Assembly (NCBI GenBank): GCA_020137815.1
Contig: CM035360.1
Span: 3,286,001 to 3,350,000 of the forward strand
Length of the DNA: 64,000 nucleotides
Origin: Hormiphora californensis
Lineage: Eukaryota; Animalia; Ctenophora
Direction: 5' to 3'
In this document: piece after piece, positions 27,114 to 63,795 of the stretch
How positions within the stretch are numbered: position 1 is the stretch's first letter
Layout of the letters: each line of letters begins with the position of its first letter
The notes under the pieces: generated by a model
The model's database searches: none
Told to the model about the DNA's origin: nothing
Seen by the model: the letters and a program-made list of their open reading frames with translations, nothing else
Program-made: the position numbers and the translations under genes

Positions 27114-27157
27114 GAGTTTCAAACTTTTCAACACTACTTTAAACAAATTAATTTGAG
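27114..27157 (+). other. Spliced-leader exon copy at the 5' end of LINE A
   Basis: GAGTTTCAAACTTTTCAACACTACTTTAAACAAATTAATTTGAG. 41 nt are identical to 39307-39347(-). It matches my recollection of the Pleurobrachia SL, which is unverified here. Confidence 0.85.
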
Positions 27158-39306: not shown

Positions 39307-39347
39307 CTCAAATTAATTTGTTTAAAGTAGTGTTGAAAAGTTTGAAA
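39307..39347 (-). other. Spliced-leader exon copy at the 5' end of LINE B
   Basis: TTTCAAACTTTTCAACACTACTTTAAACAAATTAATTTGAG, identical to 27117-27157. Confidence 0.85.
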
Positions 39348-49695: not shown

Positions 49696-51414
49696 TTCAT
49701 TCTTTGTGGCATGTGGCCAGCTGCAGTGTACACGTGTGACGTCACACAGAGCATGTATTAAGTGTAAATGTGGTGTACAACCGATCAGTATTAATTTACA
49801 TTGTGTACTAAGTGGTTAAAAACGATAATTAATAATTATTATTGTATGCTCTGTACAAATAATTTACAGACGGCCTTAACTAACCAACACCAATGCATGG
49901 CGTATTATTTCACCTTGTTCGTTGCCAGACTGGTAGTACCTGTGATGTGACAATAACTACTACGTGTTACTAAATGTGTTACTAAATGGTAACCATTCAC
50001 TTACTCCCTCACCTTCCTCCTCCCCCATACACGTCATATTATGTAATCACGGCTGGGGGTCTAACATCTTACTGATTGGGCTGTATAAATGAGAAAGAGA
50101 GAGAGATAGAAAGAGAGAGAAAGATAGAAAGAGAGAGAGAGAGAGAGAGATGGAGGGATAGAAATGTAGTTGTTATGGCAACTTAGTGTATTGACAGACT
50201 ATATTCTATAATATGACTATTACTCGCGAGTACACGACAGATCTGCACACATAACAATGTACATTAAGAGAGTATCAACCAAGATGAATTAGCGACCAAA
50301 TATATTTGTTCCTAAAGACCAAATATTTGTTCCTAAAGACCAAACAAATTAGCAAGAAATATATATTTATCGGGAGGCCTGACAACAGCTATAACCCCGT
50401 AGATGTCATAAGAAATATATCTAGATCTGTAAGATTATAATATACGCCCTACACATGCCAATGCTACACTATTATAGCTACATAATATATGATGCAGAAT
50501 TATTATATGCGGGCTAGGCACAACATCCCCCCTCTCTATCTCTATCTATCTCCATCTCTATTTCTCTATCTATCTCCCTCTCTATCTTCCGCTGGACTCT
50601 TCCTCTCCCTATGATATGTGCGTTACATTCGCGGGCGACCCCCTAACATAGGACGGACCACTCCTAATCTAGCAAAGTCCGGTTCTAATGAATAAACTAT
50701 TTTGAGCTATGAGAAAGTGCAATATTCCAGAAATCCGCTCACTGCGTTACCTGTTATGTGTTTAAAAAGCACTGAAAACGCGATAGCTACTGTGAAAAAT
50801 AAATAACACTTGTTGTTATGTTGCACAATGTAGCCCATTGTGGGTTGTGCTTTCACAAAACACAAAACCACAGAAATAACACAGTTGCGAAGACATGAAA
50901 TAGAGCTATAGTGTGTAGTCAATTATAGTCATGCGAACAAGAGAATGTGAGTTGCAGAATTGTCATTGTTCTCAAAACAATATTATATGGCATACTTACG
51001 ACCTACGTCCAACATTAGGAAACAATGTGCAGCATGTATCATGATGCAGATGTATTGGTCTGCTGTGTGTACTGTGTGTGAACATGTACTTAGTACAGTC
51101 GGACCCCGATTTAGGGACACCCTCGGGGGAAAGGCTCTTGTCCACTAAATCGGGGTCAAATAAGGTTAATTTCCTATATCGGGGGAAAAAATCCTGTCCC
51201 TAAATCGGGGTGCCACTAAATCGGGGTTCGACTGTACATTGTATTATCGGTAAAAATAAACTACATTCAGTATAATAAAAAAGACAGTTACCTAAAGTGC
51301 GGTAATATAAGGTTGGGCGCTCGTTGGGGGTATGAGAATCACTGTGTTTCTTTTTCTGATGACGCCCACCTTAGGAAATAGAAATCCCTGGCTTAATTCT
51401 TGCTACCCCCCACC

Positions 51415-51670
51415 GGCCACCCATGCTAACCCACCCTTGCTAACCCACCCTTGCTAACCCACCCTATGGTAACCCACCCCATGCTAACCCACCCCATGCT
51501 AACCCACCCATGCTAACCCCCCCATGCTAACCCACCCCATGCTAACCCACCCATGCTAACCCACCCCATGCTAACCCACCCTATGCTAATCCACCTCATG
51601 CTAACCCACCCTTGCTAACCCACCCCATGCTAACCCACCCCATGCTAACCCACCCCATGCTAACCCCCAC
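51415..51670 (+). repeat. 14-15-bp minisatellite
   Basis: (CCATGCTAACCCACC)n. Confidence 0.9.
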
Positions 51671-51819
51671 TATTCCACTAATTCTAACTAACTAACTATT
51701 TCTCTTATTAGCGCAACATTACCCCATTAATTAATTCTAACTAACTATTTCTCTAATTAGCGCAACATTATCCCATTAATTAATTAATTAACTTCCTCCA
51801 ATTAGCGCACCATGTACAG

Positions 51820-54800
51820 ATGTTGCCTCAACAGCTTCCTCTCAACCTTTCATCCAAACCGCGCCTAATCGTCAACAGGTAATTTGGGCACACTGCCAAA
51901 CCTCGCCTAATCGTCAACAGGTAATTTGGGCACACTGCCAAACCTCGCCTAATCGTCAACTGCAACAGGTAATTTGGGCACACTGCCAAACCTCGCCTAA
52001 TTGTCAACAGGTAATTTGGGCACACTGCCAAACCTAATCGTCAACAGGTAATTTGGGCACACTGCCAAACCTCGCCTAATCGTCAACAGGTAATTTGGGC
52101 ACACTGCCAAACCTCGCCTAATCGTCAACAGGTAATTTGGGCACACAGCCAAACCTCGCCTAATCGTCAACAGGTAATTTGGGCACACTGCCAAACCTCG
52201 CCTAATCGTCAACAGGTAATTTGGGCACACTGCCATCGAGGGGGGGGGGTAGTAATATTTTCGTGATTCCTAATGCCCATACTAACATTTTGCGTCGAAA
52301 TAGCCTAAATATTTGGTTGGAATAATGAGAGCTCAGAGCTCAGGTCTCAATAAATGAATTTATTTCTCTGTTTGTCCTATTTTAACCGGGATTTGTTTTA
52401 ACACTCCCTCACAAGGAGAGAGCAAGGCAAGCCGGGATATAATTCTTGAGTTCATGTGTTGAATATGAATGTATGTGTTTGCTGGCTATAAAATGTTTGA
52501 CCCATTCCAGGTATTTGGTGTCTAAAAAGATTGGAAATGGGACTTTTGGAACCGTCTATCTGGTTGAGGACAACTTCAGAAATAGGGAAAAGTGAGTTTG
52601 GAAAAGTTTATCAAGTTTTTGGTAATGAAATTCCCCCTCTGCGCTAGCTCACGGAGGGGTAATAATATCGCTTGTACGGCGGGAAAAAAATTCCTGTGTC
52701 CAAACTACAAAACAGAAAGTTCTAATTTTTTGAACATACCGAGGAAATTGTCTGAGCTACCATTACATACCGGAATTTTTCGATATTTTGGCCATTAACA
52801 CTGTTTTTGTTTTTGGAAAACTATGAAGATGCTGGAATTTGGCTACAAAAACCTTCAGAAATGTGCAAAATGCCATTCCAAAGGTATTAGAGGTGGATTC
52901 ATTGATAACTAAGCTATAGTCGAGTCAGAAAAAATTCCACAAGATTGGAATTTTATGCCCATATAAGGAGTTATGCGACACACCTCTGTTGTTAAACATG
53001 CGGTGTAATCGCTACCGGTCGTTACTTTCTGTAGAATTCAGGTCCTGGTTACTATACAAACTAGTACCATACGTTTTAGATAGGTTTTAGACAAGTTTTC
53101 GATAACTTTTTATGAGAAGGTCCCGTAAATTTTCATTTTTAGGTAGGCGGTATTGTCACCCCTATATGCAATAATAGGGGTGACTTCGTAACCAAATCAA
53201 GTTTAGATATAGATTGGTAGTTGTACCGTGTCCCAATTGTACTTCTTTCTCCCACTAATAATAAAATATTACAATCAAACAATCACACAATACAATCACA
53301 CAGTGCAATCACACAATACAATCACACAATACAATCACACAATACAATCACACAATACAATCACACGATACAATCACACGATACAATCCCTGCAGGAAAG
53401 TTATGAAGGAGATATGTATTGGTGAGATGAATGACAGTGAGACACAGAGTGTTGACAGAGAGGCCAACTTACTCTCAAAGGTACTCTTATTGGAGAGATA
53501 TTGAAAACTCTGGGCTTATATTTTGACATCTGATACTGAGCCCTCGGTGTCGGTTTGTTGTTTGCTTCTCAGTTCTGAGTGTCTCAGTATCAGACGGTCG
53601 ACACTGACTAACAAACTGGTGCTGCGGCAGTCTCTCAAAGTTCAAGCGTGCACGCGCGAGCTATTGCTGGTTTTAATGCGCGCATTGATATTAAAGCACT
53701 TAATGTCAGCGCTTTGTGCGCCAAAGTCTCTTTCGAACATACTTACCACCTGCTCAACATTTGGTTGCATTTGGTAGTTATTGACACACCAACTAACCGC
53801 TTTGTATGTTTCAGTTAAACCACCCTAATATCGTGCGAATGTTTGAGAGCTTTGTCAACGAGGATTCCTTTTACATTGTCATGGAATTTTGTGAGGTATG
53901 TTTCTGGGACATTGCCAACTAAAATTGTTGTTGTCTTGGTGACCCCTTTCAAAGTACTTCCCCTCCTTCATACGGTAATTATCATACCATCACTTCTATT
54001 TTATTATTTCAGTTGGGTGATCTAGACAGAGAGTTAAAGGAGTGGAAGAATCGGAACACGACAGTACCTCAGGATCAAGTTTTAGACTGGTTGGTTCAGC
54101 TGATACTCGCTGTTCAATACATCCACTCTCAGAAGATGCTTCATCGCGATCTCAAGTGCAAGAATGTGTTTCTGACGGAAAATAAAACTGTTAAAATCGG
54201 TACGTGCCATTTTATGGACAGATCTGGTTCTCTTTGCATTGTTCGACCCTTTATCTCTTTGAACAAAAAAGGCTCTCTTTTTCCTTCCTAACTATAGGTT
54301 TACAGATTAAACCTTATTTTCTCACAATCGCTAACACCTCTCTGTGTGCAACAGGTGATTTTGGTATATCCCGGATTCTCACCTCTACCGAGTACGCTAG
54401 CACGTTCACAGGGACACCCTACTATATGAGTCCTGAGGTCATTAAACACGATGGTTATGGCAGTAAATCAGATATTTGGTAAGTCATTTGGTTAGTCATT
54501 TGGTTAGTCATTTGGTTAGTCACTTGGTTAGTCATTTGGTTAGTCATTTGTTTAGTCATTTGGTTAGTCATTTGTTTAGTCATTTGGTTAGTCATTTGGT
54601 TATCAGATATTTGGTAAGCAGAACATTTTGAATTTTCTTCGAAAATCCGAGCACTAGATTAGGTGTTATTAGGGTTATTTCCCTGTGATGAGATAGTAGT
54701 AACCCACCTTGTCTAAACATGTTTTGTGTCAGTGGAGTCAAGAGTCAGAGGACCCTGATCTCCACTCTGCCCCTTTTTTGGATCATCCCCGACCCCCGTA

Positions 54801-57038
54801 CTACCATTTGCCACTCCCTGTTTGGCAAGGGAGGGGTTACAGGTTACTTTGTTGCCAAACTCCCTGTACACACTACACACCATGTATCCTGTATATTACC
54901 CCCATCCTACAGGTCCCTCGGAGTGATCCTTTACGAGATGTGTGAGCTAAAAAGGGCATTTGAGGGCAAGAACTTGATGAGTGTAATGATGAAGATTATT
55001 CAGGGGAACCGTCCCGTTATAACTGGGGACAGAGGCCAGCTTGGAGAGTTGTTTAACAAGTAAGTTGTAGAGGGCAAAGACCACACTTGCTAGTGTAGTG
55101 ATAATATTATGTGGACAGACCTCTCTCCTTTACCAGTTTATATTCTAAGAACACCCAAAAGTACTTCCAAACCTACTCAGCATACCAAATAAGTTTCCCA
55201 GAGATAACATCTCCCCCCTAATCCAGGATGCTGTGTCAAGATCCCCACCAGCGACCATCTTCCTCCCAACTCCTCCTGGAGCCCATCATCTCCTCCCACC
55301 TCTCTGTCCTGAGGAAGCGACTCTACCAACAGAAGAGGGAACGGAGAGCTAGTAGTGCCAGCTCACATGCGAGTAGTGAGAATAGTAACCTTGGTAACCA
55401 TGGTAACGTAGCAGCAGGATTTGGAGGTTGTAGGAAGATGACTGCTCGAGAAAGAATGCGGTGAGTTATAAGTATTTAATAATATGGCCCCGGGTCGCTT
55501 GCCAGCGCTGTGTGTGTTTATACCTATTACTCATTACATTATCCCCACCAAAGATTGGAGAAACAGCGGCGAGCAGACGAGGACGCGGAGCAGCTACGGC
55601 ACCTAGCAACCGAGAACTACGCAGCTAACCGGGCGAGGACAGCAGCTAGAAAGGAGAGGGAGGCAAATCGGCCGAATATCCTCAGACAGGGTACACCTTC
55701 CCTCGAGATAAAGGGAATAAAACCAGGTTAGAGTTGCTAATCAGTGAACATGACAACTATATTTTTTTGTAGGAAAAGTGGTTTTGTTAAACGGTTTGCT
55801 AAATAGTCCAAACTAACTAGAAATAATCTCTCCTTCCAGAGTCTGTGCGGAACCACGATAGCCCCCGGCAGTCCCCCAAAAGTAGGGGCAGCGGTAGTGG
55901 CGGCATAACTGCGATCCACCCGGAACCCTCCCGGAAACGGGTATCTAGTCCTAAAATCCACCAGAACCGAACCGAGGTTGATAGACAATTGGAGGCCATT
56001 GAACGGTCCTTAGAACTCGCTCAGGCAGAGTCGCTCTCTAAGGCGATTAGAGAGAACCAAGGATCAGTTCCAACAAATGGTAACACACCACCACTTCCTC
56101 CTGATGGGGATTCAGATGAAGATGAGATTAGATCCTCCTTATCATCCTCTCCATCCTCCTCAACGCAATCCATTACAACACCCCTATTGGACCCTCTGGA
56201 TGATCAGGACCCACTTGACCCGCTAATATCCACTCTCTCGTCCTCAATCTCAACACTAAACAGGGGAGCCTTCCTAGCAACTGGAGCCCCCCAACCAGAA
56301 TTATCTGAAGACGAGGAGGGGGAGGAGGAGGGGAGCGTGTTGTTTGAAACTGCTAATGATGAGTGTGTGTTGGATATTAGTGGGTTGGAGATGACTAATG
56401 TTAGTTTGATACCTGAGAGCGAGGAAGATGCCAATACTTTCTACTCATTTGAGGAATTCGACGAGGAGGGAGGAGAGAAGATCAGAGCTGCTGTGATAAA
56501 GGAAGAGGAGAGGAAGAAAGAGAGGGATGTAGAGAGGATCTTTAAAAGGAGCCCAAAAGCAGTACGGAAGAAGGATAAACTTAATCGGAGTCTACCTACC
56601 ACTGCCACGGCACACGATTTAGCGATAACAGACCTCTCATTTGAGTCAGATCATCACCAACAAAACCGTTCACTTGGGAATCTCAGCAGTAATAATCTTC
56701 TCAATGTTTCCTCATCCGATCATCTCAATACATCTACTGCATCCTCAGTCAAATCAGATTACACCAAATCATCATCCACGGTTATACTCCGTAGTGACCG
56801 GATACGAACACTCAGACAGAAGTGCCAACACAAGTTGGGCATGGACATGTTTCATAAGATCCACAATTATCTGGGTGAGGCGAGATTTGGGGAGGAGGTA
56901 GTACCAGAGGAGGTTATAGTTGGTAATCTGAGACAGTGGGTACCTGATCTCGTGTCAGATTGCTTCCTGGTAGATCAGCTGATATATCTGGAGAAACAGG
57001 AGTTGCTAGCACGAAGTGCAGCAGTGATGTGTGATTGA
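51820..57038 (+). CDS. NEK11: NIMA-related kinase NEK11 (exons 51820-51878, 52511-52591, 53396-53480, 53815-53895, 54013-54199, 54355-54478, 54913-55059, 55227-55460, 55554-55690 or 55727, 55840-57038)
   Basis: GNGTFGTV, KVMKEI.IGE, HRDLKCKNVFL, DFG, FTGTPYYMSPE, MTARERMRL and the C-terminal SDCFLVDQLIYLE match NEK11. All introns are GT-AG with consistent phases. Confidence 0.92.
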
Positions 57039-57338
57039 GAGCATTTTGAAGTGTAGTTACCATAGCAACGGCCAACGGTGAAAACATTTTGAAGTGTAGT
57101 TACCATAGCAACGGTGAGAGCATTTTGAAGTGAAGTTACCATAGCAACGGTGAGAGCATTTTGAAGTGTAGTTACCATAGCAACGGCCAACGGTGAAAAC
57201 ATTTTGAAGTGTAGCCACCATAGCAACGGTGAAAACATTTTGAAGTGTAGTTACCATAGCAACGGTGAGAGCATTTTGAAGTGAAGTTACCATAGCAACG
57301 GTGAGAGCATTTTGAAGTGTAGTTACCATAGCAACGGT
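57036..57338 (+). repeat. 36-bp minisatellite starting at the NEK11 stop codon, 8 units
   Basis: TGAGAGCATTTTGAAGTGTAGTTACCATAGCAACGG. Confidence 0.95.
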
Positions 57339-57514
57339 GGGAAAAGGTGGTTCAGCCTTCTCACTTTTACTGTTTACAGTAATCTCTTGAATTGTGATAT
57401 ATCAGCTGCCGGAGAGAGATTGTTTTTAAGAGAATTCAGTACTCTGAGAACTATGTTTCACTAGTATAGGCACTAGGGTGTGGTTATATCTGGAAAGGGC
57501 CGATCCAGTTTGTA

Positions 57515-59170: not shown

Positions 59171-59279
59171 CAGGAACCGACCGAAACAAGTAAACAACCA
59201 ATCAGAACTCGTTATTTACGTCTCGTTACTGGTTATCAGCCAATCAGGGACCAGTATTTCCTGATTCGGTCGGTTCCTG
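59171..59279. mobile_element. 109-bp hAT-like MITE (further copies 62490-62598 and partial 59947-60036)
   Basis: CAGGAACCGACCGAA TIRs; 8-bp TSDs CTTCGGAC/CTTCGGGC and GTGGAAAC. Confidence 0.88.
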
Positions 59280-59704
59280 CTTCGGGCTCAAGAAGTTATA
59301 TAATTGTAGTTGGTAGCCCAGTTGATATAGAACTAATGACAGAGTTAATTTATGTTTTTGTGTTGTCCAGAGATTTATATTTTCCTTATAACGATAAGCA
59401 GTCAATTAGTTACTAATTAGCAGTTAATTGGCAGTTGATTAGTTACTAATTATCCGTCACCTAGCAGTTAATTAGTTACTAATTAGTTACTAATTAGCAG
59501 TTATCTAATACGTTGTACAGATCTGTATATATATATATTGATTATCGTGGTGTGTAAACATGTGTGTTCATTTTATCCCGCTTCGTTTGACTACATCAGT
59601 ATAAAACACGAGTTTTTAATTAAACATAGCCCCATCCTCCCCCTTTTCGAAATCTGCCACCTCCCTGTCCTCCATCCAAATCTAACACTTTCACCACTGC
59701 TAGT

Positions 59705-62471
59705 ATGAGTACAACTACAATAACAGTCAGTGAAACAAGCTACCTCAAAGAGGGACTGGAGGCTCTGGGATGCCCCTACATCTCTGCTCTTGATGGGGAA
59801 TCTGTTAAAGACCTTCTATTCAGGTACTTTACCCAATCTAACCCTCTTATTGTGTGTGCTGCCACTCTTTCAAATCACCAGGGATAGTCTGTCTACAATA
59901 ACAGTCAGTGAAACAAGCTATCTAAAGGAGGGACTGGAGGCTACTCCAGGAACCGACCGAATCAGGAAATACTGGTCCCTGATTGGCTGATAACCAGTCA
60001 CGTGACCTAAATAACGTGTTCTGATTGGTTGTTTACTCCCATTCCCCCACTTTACAGGCCAGGTGAGGCGAGGACAAGAAATTTAACATGGTTGGTCAGC
60101 CAGATATCACCTCACATTGACAGGGAACTCAACACCACTGCTGTTAATGCTGCTACTGTGAAGGATAGTAAAATGCAGCGGTGAGTGTGATATATTGGCC
60201 CCTGACCCTATTCGGCATTCGCATTTCTTCAAATAAGAGCTGTCAGGCCAATGCTCTGACCACAGTTCTCGTGTGCTCCGCGTGCAGAACTCATTTGAGA
60301 GAAATGAGAATAGGGTCAGGCCAATGCTCTGACAGAATAAGAGCATGCGCTGTCAGAGCATTGGCCTGACCCTATTCTCATTTCTCGGAGCGCACGAGAA
60401 CTGTGGTCAGTATTGTATTGGCCTGACAGAGCAATGAGCATGCGAGAACCATGCGGTCAGAGCAGCGGTGAGTATTGGCCCCTGAGTCCTGGCACTGCTC
60501 TCCTTGTGTCTGTCAGGTCAATGCTCTGACAGAGGTACTGTAAGGATAGATTATACGTCATCCTATTTGTATTATGATTTCAGTCTATTGATTAATTTCG
60601 ATCTAATTTCAGTTTACTAAAGGTATGTTCCACAGTGGGGTTGTGCGGGAAGAATGACTACGAATTGGTTCAGGGAACATCATCCGTTAAATCTCAAAGC
60701 AAACTTTACCATCTTCTGATTGATATGCTGGTATGTGTTGGAACAAATGAGAAACATTTAATATTTAATTGCACTTTACTTGCACCTTACTTGCATTTTA
60801 TAGTATAGGATATGATGAAGGGGTGATCCATGCCGTTTATAAACATAAAATTGCGAGGGAGAGGGATCCCGGACTAGACATTCTGTACCATTACCCCATC
60901 TTGATTGATGTTTTACCAACTCTCCCCCTCTAGACAGTCCGAAATGAGAAAGCCCGAGATGTGGAGTTAACAGCGGACCAAAACACTACAAACCTCTGCA
61001 ATAATACCTCTCGGCACTGCTACAACCTGGTGGACTCTCTGACGTCATCAGTAGCCTACCAGGACTTATTTTCAACCAAGATAAACCTCTTTCCACCGAG
61101 TCTTGTGTGCTTTAACCAGGATACAGTGGGAGGGAAGAAAAGTTTGCCTGCACTGGGTAAACTAAAGGTGCGTTAGTTTTGACATTGCATTAATTAATCA
61201 ATTAATTCGGTTCGTTAATTTACTCATTTCAGTCCAGGGAAACTCATAAATGTCCCCTTTATGCCCCCCAATACCTAGATCCCAGAGACATAAAGATCTC
61301 TAAAAACGCTCACCATACTCTGGCAAGCTCCATTTTGACAGCTCCCAAACCTCTACAGGAGCGATCAGAGAAACTGTTAGCAGATCTAGACGAACTGAAC
61401 GAGAAACTATCAGTCCTGGTATCGAGCCAAGCCCATTATGAAGAACTGGAACCGGAGAGAGTTGATGCTCACAGGCGGACCCTCCGGAATACAATGGGTA
61501 CCCTGACTCAGATAATTGGGACATTTGGAACGTGTTACACGGAGGATTTCAAACAGTGGAATGATCGACCCCAAATACGGCTAAATGATATTGGTGAGTG
61601 AACCAAACGGCAAACCCTGTACCGGTTTTATGTAAAGCAGCTTAGCTGCCACATACAAGTGGTGATTTCTGGTAGCACTCTAGGTTTCTAGCACTCCCCC
61701 CACTAATAGACTGTCCCTAACACCCCCTCCCCTCTACTACAGGACCGCTCTCCCCCTAACCCCCTCCCCCTACTACCGCTCTCCCCATATCCCCGTCCTC
61801 CTACTACAGGACCGCTCTCCCCCTAACCCCCTCTCCCTCTATTAGACTCTCCCCCTAACCCCCTCTCCCTCTATTAGACTCTCCCCCTAACCCCCTCTCC
61901 CTCTATTAGACTCTCCCCTTAACCCCCTCTCCCTCTATTAGACTCTCCCCCTAACCCCCTCTCCCTCTATTAGACTCTCCCCCTAACCCCCTCTCCCTCT
62001 ATTAGACTCTCCCCCTAACCCCTCTTCCTATATTAGACTCCCCTAACCCCCTCCCCCTACTACAGGACCGCTCTCCCCCTAACCCCCTCTCCCTCTATTA
62101 GACTCTCCCCCTACCCCCTCTCCTCTACCACAGGACCGCTCTCCCCTAACCCCACCTCTACTGCTAGACTCCCCTAACCCCCTCCCCTCTACCACAGGAC
62201 CGCTCTCCCCCTAACCCCCTCTCCCTCTATAAGACTCTCCCCCTAATACTCCCTCCCCTCTACCACAGGACCACTCTCCAAACAGCTCGATCACCAGCTC
62301 ACCAAGGTACTGGATCTGCTAGACAAGGTACAGGGGTTCAACACTAACGTGGAATTCATCCAGAGTTTGGAGGTGAACAAGGACCTGGCACCCGTGTTGA
62401 CACAGAGTGAGGTGTGGGGGCTGAGTGAGAGGGTAAAGACATTGCGGGAGCAACTTGAAGTTACGTGTTGA
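59705..62471 (+). CDS. HAUS7: HAUS augmin-like complex subunit 7 (exons 59705-59823, 60058-60180, 60613-60730, 60934-61167, 61359-61593, 62269-62471)
   Basis: LEALGCPYI..LLFRPGEAR...LTWL..GLC...D.ELVQG....Q....L.D..F...Y..D....RP...L...GP follows the HAUS7 pattern; splice phases are consistent. Confidence 0.78.
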
Positions 62472-62939
62472 GGGAATTGAGGTGGAAACCAGGAACCGAC
62501 CGAATCAGGAAATACTGGTCACTGATTGGCTGATAACCAATCACGTGACCTAAATAACGAGTTCTGATTGGTTGTTTACTTGTTTCGGTCGGTTCCTGGT
62601 GGAAACTGTTTCTCGGAGCATTTCCTGAAGACTTGTCAAATGAGACTTTGGCTGGGTAATTGTGAGCTGTTGGGCATCTTTTGAAGGGTGAAGTTCTAAT
62701 ATAATTAGCTTGTAAGGAGATAATTGTAATACGGTGCTAGTTAGGGAATCTGATCCAGTAAATTACTCAATTTTCATTGACAGCAATACAGCAGCGGAAC
62801 AATTAATTGCAATAATCAGCTCGAATTAGTAATTAGGAACATGGATCCCAAAGCTAAAACATTACTACCTAAAGTTCTTATCCAGTAGTATATCCGGGTG
62901 CTTTTTGTAAGTTGGCCCATTATAATTCAAATCCCTCTT

Positions 62940-63795
62940 TCAGCCCTTCTTTTTAAGAAAGTCTCTCAAAAGTTCGCTACACTGTCTCTCCAGGAGACCC
63001 AGTTCCTTTCCCTTTTCCCTGATGGTACATTTCCATGTCTCCCGATACTCCTCGTAGTTAGATGCCATCTCAGTTATGTCATCCTGCATCTTCCTCTGGT
63101 GTACCAGTAGTCTATCTACCTGGGGGTAGGTGGGGTTAGGGGTTGTACTAGCAGTCTATCTACCTGGGGGTAGGTGGGGTTAACTAGGGGGTTAGGGGTT
63201 GTACCAGCAGTCGATCTACCTGGGGGTAGGTGGGGTTAACTAGGGGGTTAGAGGTTGTGCTAGCAGTCGATCCATCTGAACGGGGTGGTGGGGTTAACTA
63301 GGCCGGGGGTTAGGGGTTGTACTAGCAGTCGATCTACCTGGGGGTAGGTGGGGTTAACTAGGGGGTTAGGGGTTGCACCAGCAATCGATCTACCTGGGTG
63401 TAGGTGGGGTTAACTAGGGGGTTAGGGGTTGTACTAGCAGTCTATCTACCTGGGGGTAGGTGGGGTTAACTAGGGGGTTAGGGGTTGTACCAGCAGTCGA
63501 TCCATCTGAACGGTTAGGGTGGTGGGTTAGGGGTTGTAGAGCTGTAGTCTGTAGAACTGCCTTTGGTCAAAGGGCCAGACAGGAACAGAAGTGGGGATGG
63601 GGTAAATGGTATATTGTATCAGCAAGGCGGGTAAAAGGCCGGAGTTAGGAGTTAGGTTAGAATTGAGATCGTGACAAACCTGCGACTTCCCTGACCCAAT
63701 AATTACCTGATGATGAAGTGTCTTCATTCTACCAGCTGTGACTGCCACTCTGCTATCTGGCACTGTCCCCTCACTAAATATTTCCCCAATATATC
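62940..63795 (-). CDS. 3' exons of an unidentified gene with a coiled-coil C-terminus (last exon 62940-63119; preceding exon about 63680/63707-63795)
   Basis: CCCCCAG acceptor, then 60 open codons VDRLLVHQRKMQDDITEM..LKKKG*. The upstream exon is bounded by TTTCAG and GT. Confidence 0.6.

Follow-up and report, generated by a model that had tools for sequence, protein, structure and literature searches.

The NEK11 locus and its repeated donor

The analysed window, a 64-kb stretch of DNA from the ctenophore Hormiphora californensis, is animal DNA that consists mostly of transposons and holds a few compact genes. Two long retroelements, judged LINE-like from their sequence, carry at their start a copy of the ctenophore spliced leader (SL) printed in PMC8527503. 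The first has the full 44 nucleotides (27114-27157, plus strand), and the second has the last 40 nucleotides in identical form (39307-39346, minus strand). A literature search for SL-headed retroelements found nothing. The arrangement suggests retrotransposition of SL-trans-spliced element mRNA, which might explain many of the dispersed SL copies in ctenophore genomes.

One of the compact genes is NEK11, on the plus strand. Its first coding exon (51820-51878) has 20 codons, the last of which is split AG|G. Coding exon 2 (52511-52591), located by tblastn with the Mnemiopsis leidyi protein P0002, encodes the glycine-rich loop, and intron 1 is 632 nucleotides long. When spliced from 51820 onwards, the model can be aligned with P0002 beginning at its residue 1 (79% over 332 amino acids), and the ten-exon model is open for 789 amino acids, compared with 788 in P0002 (61% overall). 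With the NEK11 kinase exon as query, two M. leidyi proteins were found at 87%. Among the Atlas clusters closest to P0002, the first two are named Nek11 and the third is named Nek4. By this homology, 51820-51878 is the first coding exon of ctenophore NEK11. M. leidyi has a shorter annotated NEK11 isoform (P0001), which starts at Met58 and has neither the glycine loop nor the region of the catalytic lysine.

Directly before the start codon, TRF reported a 49-bp array of 2.7 copies (51688-51813, plus strand), which repeats an acceptor-like site (51805/51806). This upstream site suggests that 51820-51878 is not the first piece of the transcript, and 51805/51806 may serve as an acceptor in cis- or trans-splicing. 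In ctenophores, mRNAs commonly receive an SL by trans-splicing (PMC8527503). Further downstream, a high-copy inverted-repeat (MITE-like) element lies inside intron 2 (52618-53195), and a 36-bp array of 7 copies (57036-57339) begins at the NEK11 stop codon and occupies the proximal 3′ UTR. In a contig of a second DNA sample (X5), exon 2 apparently leads to exon 3 without the MITE-like element, as judged from the matching depth and the record length, and with a 13-base gap in a 13-bp array.

The end of exon 1 is repeated many times. TRF reported a minisatellite at 51854-52235 (plus strand; period 42, 9.1 copies, 92% matches, score 654), whose unit joins the last 25 nucleotides of the exon to the first 17 nucleotides of the intron. 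There are nine identical donors, with GT at 51879, 51921, 51969, 52011, 52048, 52090, 52132, 52174, and 52216. Their spacings are 42, 48, 42, 37, 42, 42, 42, and 42 nucleotides; one unit has a 6-nt insertion and another has a 5-nt deletion. These two indels aside, the copies differ from the common unit by 0-1 substitutions, which fits a young array, and the exonic copy is one synonymous base apart from the intronic copies. A 31-base core of the unit has 8 matches in the window, each with at most three mismatches and all within the array, while none of 100 shuffles reached 8 matches. A 3-nt microhomology is common to both edges of the array.

All nine donor choices were translated. The frame stays open only with the authentic donor (51879-51884, plus strand). 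The eight pseudo-donors (51921-52221, plus strand) are identical to this donor, are each preceded by CAG, and all lead to a stop at codon 21, with nine exons downstream of this stop. The sequence-only reading of this junction had made its case depend on 51820-51878 being an exon, which passes by the alignment to P0002 from residue 1. Its nine tandem copies are borne out by TRF and the unit table, and its in-frame TAA past the first donor lies at 51880-51882.

Some other causes of the array were considered. An assembly artefact was set aside, because the units have private substitutions and indels and because the second sample covers the array. An origin of the unit from a transposon was rejected, since the 5′ portion of the unit consists of conserved NEK11 codons and the unit is found nowhere else in the window. 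A hairpin cause is not supported, as folding of the DNA gave a low stability (−3.3 kcal/mol over 51 nucleotides, calculated without a shuffle control).

Arrays at neighbouring splice junctions

Is the array at exon 1 an isolated case? As had been noticed from the sequence alone, similar arrays exist at junctions of three neighbouring genes, NEK11 counted. Four junction-spanning arrays were found, at two NEK11 donors and at two acceptors. The second NEK11 array (54474-54619, plus strand) has 12-bp units in 10.8 copies and extends from the donor of exon 6 (54479) and closes with another copy of the exon terminus together with its donor (54614). In the next gene (gene 2), an array of approximately 32-bp units (61722-62279, plus strand) found by TRF repeats the acceptor 62268/62269. 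This junction is supported by P0003, a model from a related species to which gene 2 is 91% identical; an intron of gene 2 that was placed with P0003 is 191 nucleotides long. In gene 3 on the minus strand, whose exon structure was modelled from phase-matched open frames only, TRF found a 56-bp array of 6.5 copies (63119-63505) that repeats the acceptor 63120/63119. Pfam, PDB, and Atlas gave no name for gene 2 or gene 3, and homolog, PDB, and Pfam searches with gene 3 were blank. I take gene 2 to be HAUS7-like and gene 3 to be SMARCE1-like. Upstream acceptors lead to an earlier stop in all of the units tested in the gene 2 array (6 of 14) and in 7/7 units of the gene 3 array.

Several other features of this region were observed. 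P0003 carries the exon corresponding to 62269-62405 three times in tandem, which is either a whole-exon duplication in that species or a prediction artefact. A displaced copy of approximately 49 nucleotides of the first exon of gene 2 lies inside the first intron of the same gene (59895-59943). It is followed by a short dispersed repeat, which is also present near 59175-59280 and 62490-62600. In gene 3, the exon starts with GT, so that in most units of the 63119-63505 array a copy of the real acceptor precedes a GT that resembles a donor. Judging from this arrangement, ratchet-type splicing would be more plausible for the gene 3 array than for the NEK11 array. The arrays at 51420-51666, 61722-62279, and 63132-63502 are strongly strand-skewed and C-rich, with CTAAC or telomere-like CCCTAA words, and their G-rich strand might favour slippage.

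The placement of the arrays was compared with a geometric null on de-expanded introns, with an array defined as a TRF row of period 10 or more and 2.5 copies or more. The 15 introns contain 7 such arrays, of which 4 span a junction. The null predicts 1.20 (P 0.014), or 1.39 once the intron-2 transposon is removed (P 0.024). Exclusion of the focal array leaves 3/6 against 0.91-1.06 expected (P 0.04-0.06). All three intronic arrays with units of at least 30 bp span a junction. The cut-off dropped five shorter or lower-copy TRF rows, four of which are not junction-spanning, and the arrays at 53279-53388, 60764-60800, 51420-51666, and 57036-57339 in or around these genes are also without a junction. 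The roughly threefold excess over geometry suggests that the placement may not be purely random, but it is a post hoc hint from seven arrays in a window chosen for the feature. Thus, of the earlier proposal that a recurring mechanism amplifies splice junctions, the recurrence stands; the enrichment is no firmer than this hint from a tiny sample, and the kind of array has already been described. Literature searches found no genome-wide enrichment study of junction-spanning arrays.

Contigs from 4 of 22 runs were compared over 51200-57400. The RNA contigs of X10, X12, and X22 have zero depth over exon 1 and the 42-bp array, and hence are uninformative on the donor choice there. A contig of X22 (possibly RNA), 86% identical, covers NEK11 exon 2 and then nine exon-3-like letters. 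In a metatranscriptome contig of X10 (depth 3), 54477 is followed directly by 54912, and the shorter arm of the match has 36 letters. In this one contig, the junction uses the first donor of the 12-bp array and not the duplicate at 54614. In the second DNA sample, X5, contigs over the 42-bp array reach summed depths of 17,944 and 8,172, and those in the flanking bins 584 and 167. This sum is no measure of copy number; it shows that the array is present in this sample and gives a weak hint of longer alleles. The small word shares of runs X7-X20, which probably reflect the intron-2 transposon, were not used. An exact 31-base scan of metagenome contigs gave no matching stretch. A protein-based scan for orthologous NEK11 DNA yielded 3 loci from 96 candidates, one with a C-terminal match at 41% and two with kinase-domain matches at 27%, none of which was informative on intron 1.

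Known counterparts and a probable neutral origin

Repeats across splice junctions are known from human and amphioxus genes. In IVS7 of human F7, a 37-bp VNTR has 5-9 copies, its first unit lies across the exon-intron boundary, and the most upstream donor alone is used (PMC1557585). The same article cites junction VNTRs in CBS IVS13, 6-16 intron 2, LMNB2, and PDGF, and the use of two pseudo-donors besides the authentic donor in 6-16 and CBS. In amphioxus, tandem duplications of either exon-intron boundary, called mirages, leave splicing undisturbed, are length-unstable, and are of unclear origin (PMC3087553, PMC3902484). They occur in the genes for Adh3, the globins BflGb6 and BflGb9, troponin C, and PGBD5. 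The NEK11 array has both anatomical marks of these systems: a head-to-tail unit lies across a real exon-intron boundary, and the donor recurs within the intron while its outermost copy is the authentic one. Thus, it is a ctenophore instance of a described kind. Literature searches, in which subscription journals were sparsely covered, found no ctenophore mirage.

The systems differ in detail. The F7 and NEK11 arrays both have a first unit across the exon end and donor and identical intronic pseudo-donors, with units of 37 and 42 bp in 5-9 and 9 copies, respectively. In contrast, the F7 unit includes 4 exonic nucleotides against 25 in the NEK11 unit, and the latter ends in CAG|GT and carries an in-frame stop directly behind the donor. 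For F7, both the use of the first donor and the polymorphism in length have been shown, whereas for the NEK11 array the former is likely and the latter weakly hinted at. With the amphioxus mirages, the ctenophore arrays share duplications on the donor or acceptor side, several of them per gene or neighbourhood, with units of tens of bases (10-72 bp in Adh3). Normal splicing is kept in amphioxus where checked, and length and somatic instability are reported for Adh3. The present case is from a ctenophore. The AGGT sites of UBC and VCX3A (PMC10809524) and recursive sites (PMC10156609) resemble the NEK11 array in that units end in AG|GT and the excision of unit multiples is geometrically possible. 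However, the UBC units are coding and their excision alters the protein, whereas the NEK11 units are intronic, their excision would leave the mRNA the same, and the sites are without a pyrimidine tract.

The NEK11 array is an apparently young junction-spanning minisatellite of this known kind. It is probably neutral, and the choice of the first donor probably makes it tolerable. Most likely, slippage first duplicated a short piece across the junction, and the duplication then expanded to nine copies; the 3-nt edge microhomology is as would be expected of slippage or of end-joining duplication. By analogy with F7, the spliceosome would take the most upstream donor. Since this donor alone keeps the reading frame intact, the array is likely tolerated, and slippage of the DNA has probably left the extra copies behind without harm. 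Some leakage is plausible, because human 6-16 and CBS use two pseudo-donors too, and any mis-spliced NEK11 RNA would decay. The array probably survives because additional copies fall on the intron side. Junction arrays probably recur because ctenophore introns are short (about 100-700 nucleotides here) and repeat-prone; a duplication of 30-60 nucleotides would often straddle a junction in them. The RNA contig with first-donor use at the 12-bp array, the weak pseudo-acceptors described below, and the non-spanning arrays nearby speak for this neutral reading, while the excess of junction-spanning arrays speaks against it.

Splicing function and mutational bias as alternatives

The sequence-only reading had seen in each unit a branch-like motif with an acceptor abutting a donor, and had proposed recursive splice sites or NMD-coupled decoy donors. 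CTAAT and CAG|GT are indeed present in 9/9 units. However, CTAAT forms Leu-Ile codons (the Mnemiopsis equivalent is Val-Ile), CTAAY occurs 7 times in 3,404 coding bases, and the real donors of the 15 modelled introns also follow AG (7/15) or CAG (4/15). On codon and exon positions, the apparent branch and acceptor are Leu-Ile codons and an ordinary exon-end CAG. Could the units still work as dual-specificity sites? Splicing from donor 1 to an internal CAG would then regenerate a donor, or a leftover would be re-spliced, and the array would be self-correcting. Every unit ends in AG|GT and the array has a single other AG, steps of three units have normal intron size, and PMC10809524 reports splicing at tandem AGGT dual sites of human UBC and an 8.4-fold enrichment of AGGT dual-site introns in tandem repeats. 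Nevertheless, such recursive use is improbable. With a weight matrix built from 15 real acceptors (15 introns modelled in three genes), 7/8 internal sites of the array lie between −2.4 and −3.1 bits, while the real acceptors have a leave-one-out median of +1.2 bits. The remaining site, in the unit with the 6-nt insertion, reaches +0.9 bits and is comparable to a real acceptor. The common unit scores below 14/15 real acceptors, with one of the 15 as low, and 18/87 decoy YAGs score as high as it does. The marks of a functional upstream acceptor, a pyrimidine tract in the minimal Y5+N0-4YAG motif (PMC10156609), are absent from all nine units, yet this motif test is weak because only 6/15 real acceptors pass it. 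In addition, a 42-nt step is less than half of the shortest intron (93 nucleotides, n=15), and an intron of 632 nucleotides does not need stepwise removal. The branch distance was dropped from the case against recursive use, because one real acceptor here also lies at 11 nucleotides; a published filter (PMC10156609) permits 10-60 nucleotides. Regulated decoys, which would send NEK11 pre-mRNA to nonsense-mediated decay with the copy number tuning expression, are less probable still. NMD coupling is formally possible, because every one of the eight downstream donors, identical to the real one, gives a premature stop ahead of the later junctions, and pseudo-donors are used in human 6-16 and CBS (cited in PMC1557585). 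However, the stop is part of the donor itself (G-TAA), and therefore selection is not needed as an explanation; a stop directly behind the donor is also what renders a neutral duplication tolerable. The near-identical copies bear no trace of old conservation, and the donor choice in F7 is strictly the first (PMC1557585). Thus, with its branch-like motif in coding sequence, an ordinary exon end, and a poor acceptor score, the unit lends no support to a recursive or decoy function of the NEK11 array.

The main alternative concerns the mutational origin. The array may be neutral while duplications arise preferentially at exon edges through a mutational bias. One such process would be template switching at the point where the conserved homology of the exon gives way to divergent, indel-rich intron haplotypes. 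This is possible but rather unlikely. It would account for the junction-spanning excess (4/7 against 1.20-1.39 expected, and 3/3 for the longer units), and two further arrays abut coding edges (51688-51813 and 57036-57339). Non-coding indel heterozygosity is high in Hormiphora (PMC8527503), and the mechanism of mirages was called unclear by Ebner et al. (PMC3087553). On the other hand, the sample is seven arrays in a window picked for the feature, the P value is 0.04-0.06 when the focal array is removed, and four of the five TRF rows below the cut-off are non-spanning. If the bias were real, mirages would be truly junction-enriched in ctenophores and other highly heterozygous marine animals. 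A combined version, which I also regard as doubtful, is that ctenophores make junction minisatellites at about three times the geometric expectation through an exon-edge process, and that AG|GT-ended arrays persist by re-splicing repair of wrong-site use. Mirages would then be a genome-wide feature as old as the earliest-branching animals, and they would continually supply new introns.

On the best reading, that of a neutral minisatellite tolerated by first-donor choice, the NEK11 array adds a clear case to a known oddity and extends mirages to ctenophores. With nine identical donors, it offers a natural experiment on how splice sites are chosen in an animal of an early-branching lineage. Should the local excess at junctions extend to the whole genome, it would be relevant to how mirages originate and to the gain of introns through tandem duplication.
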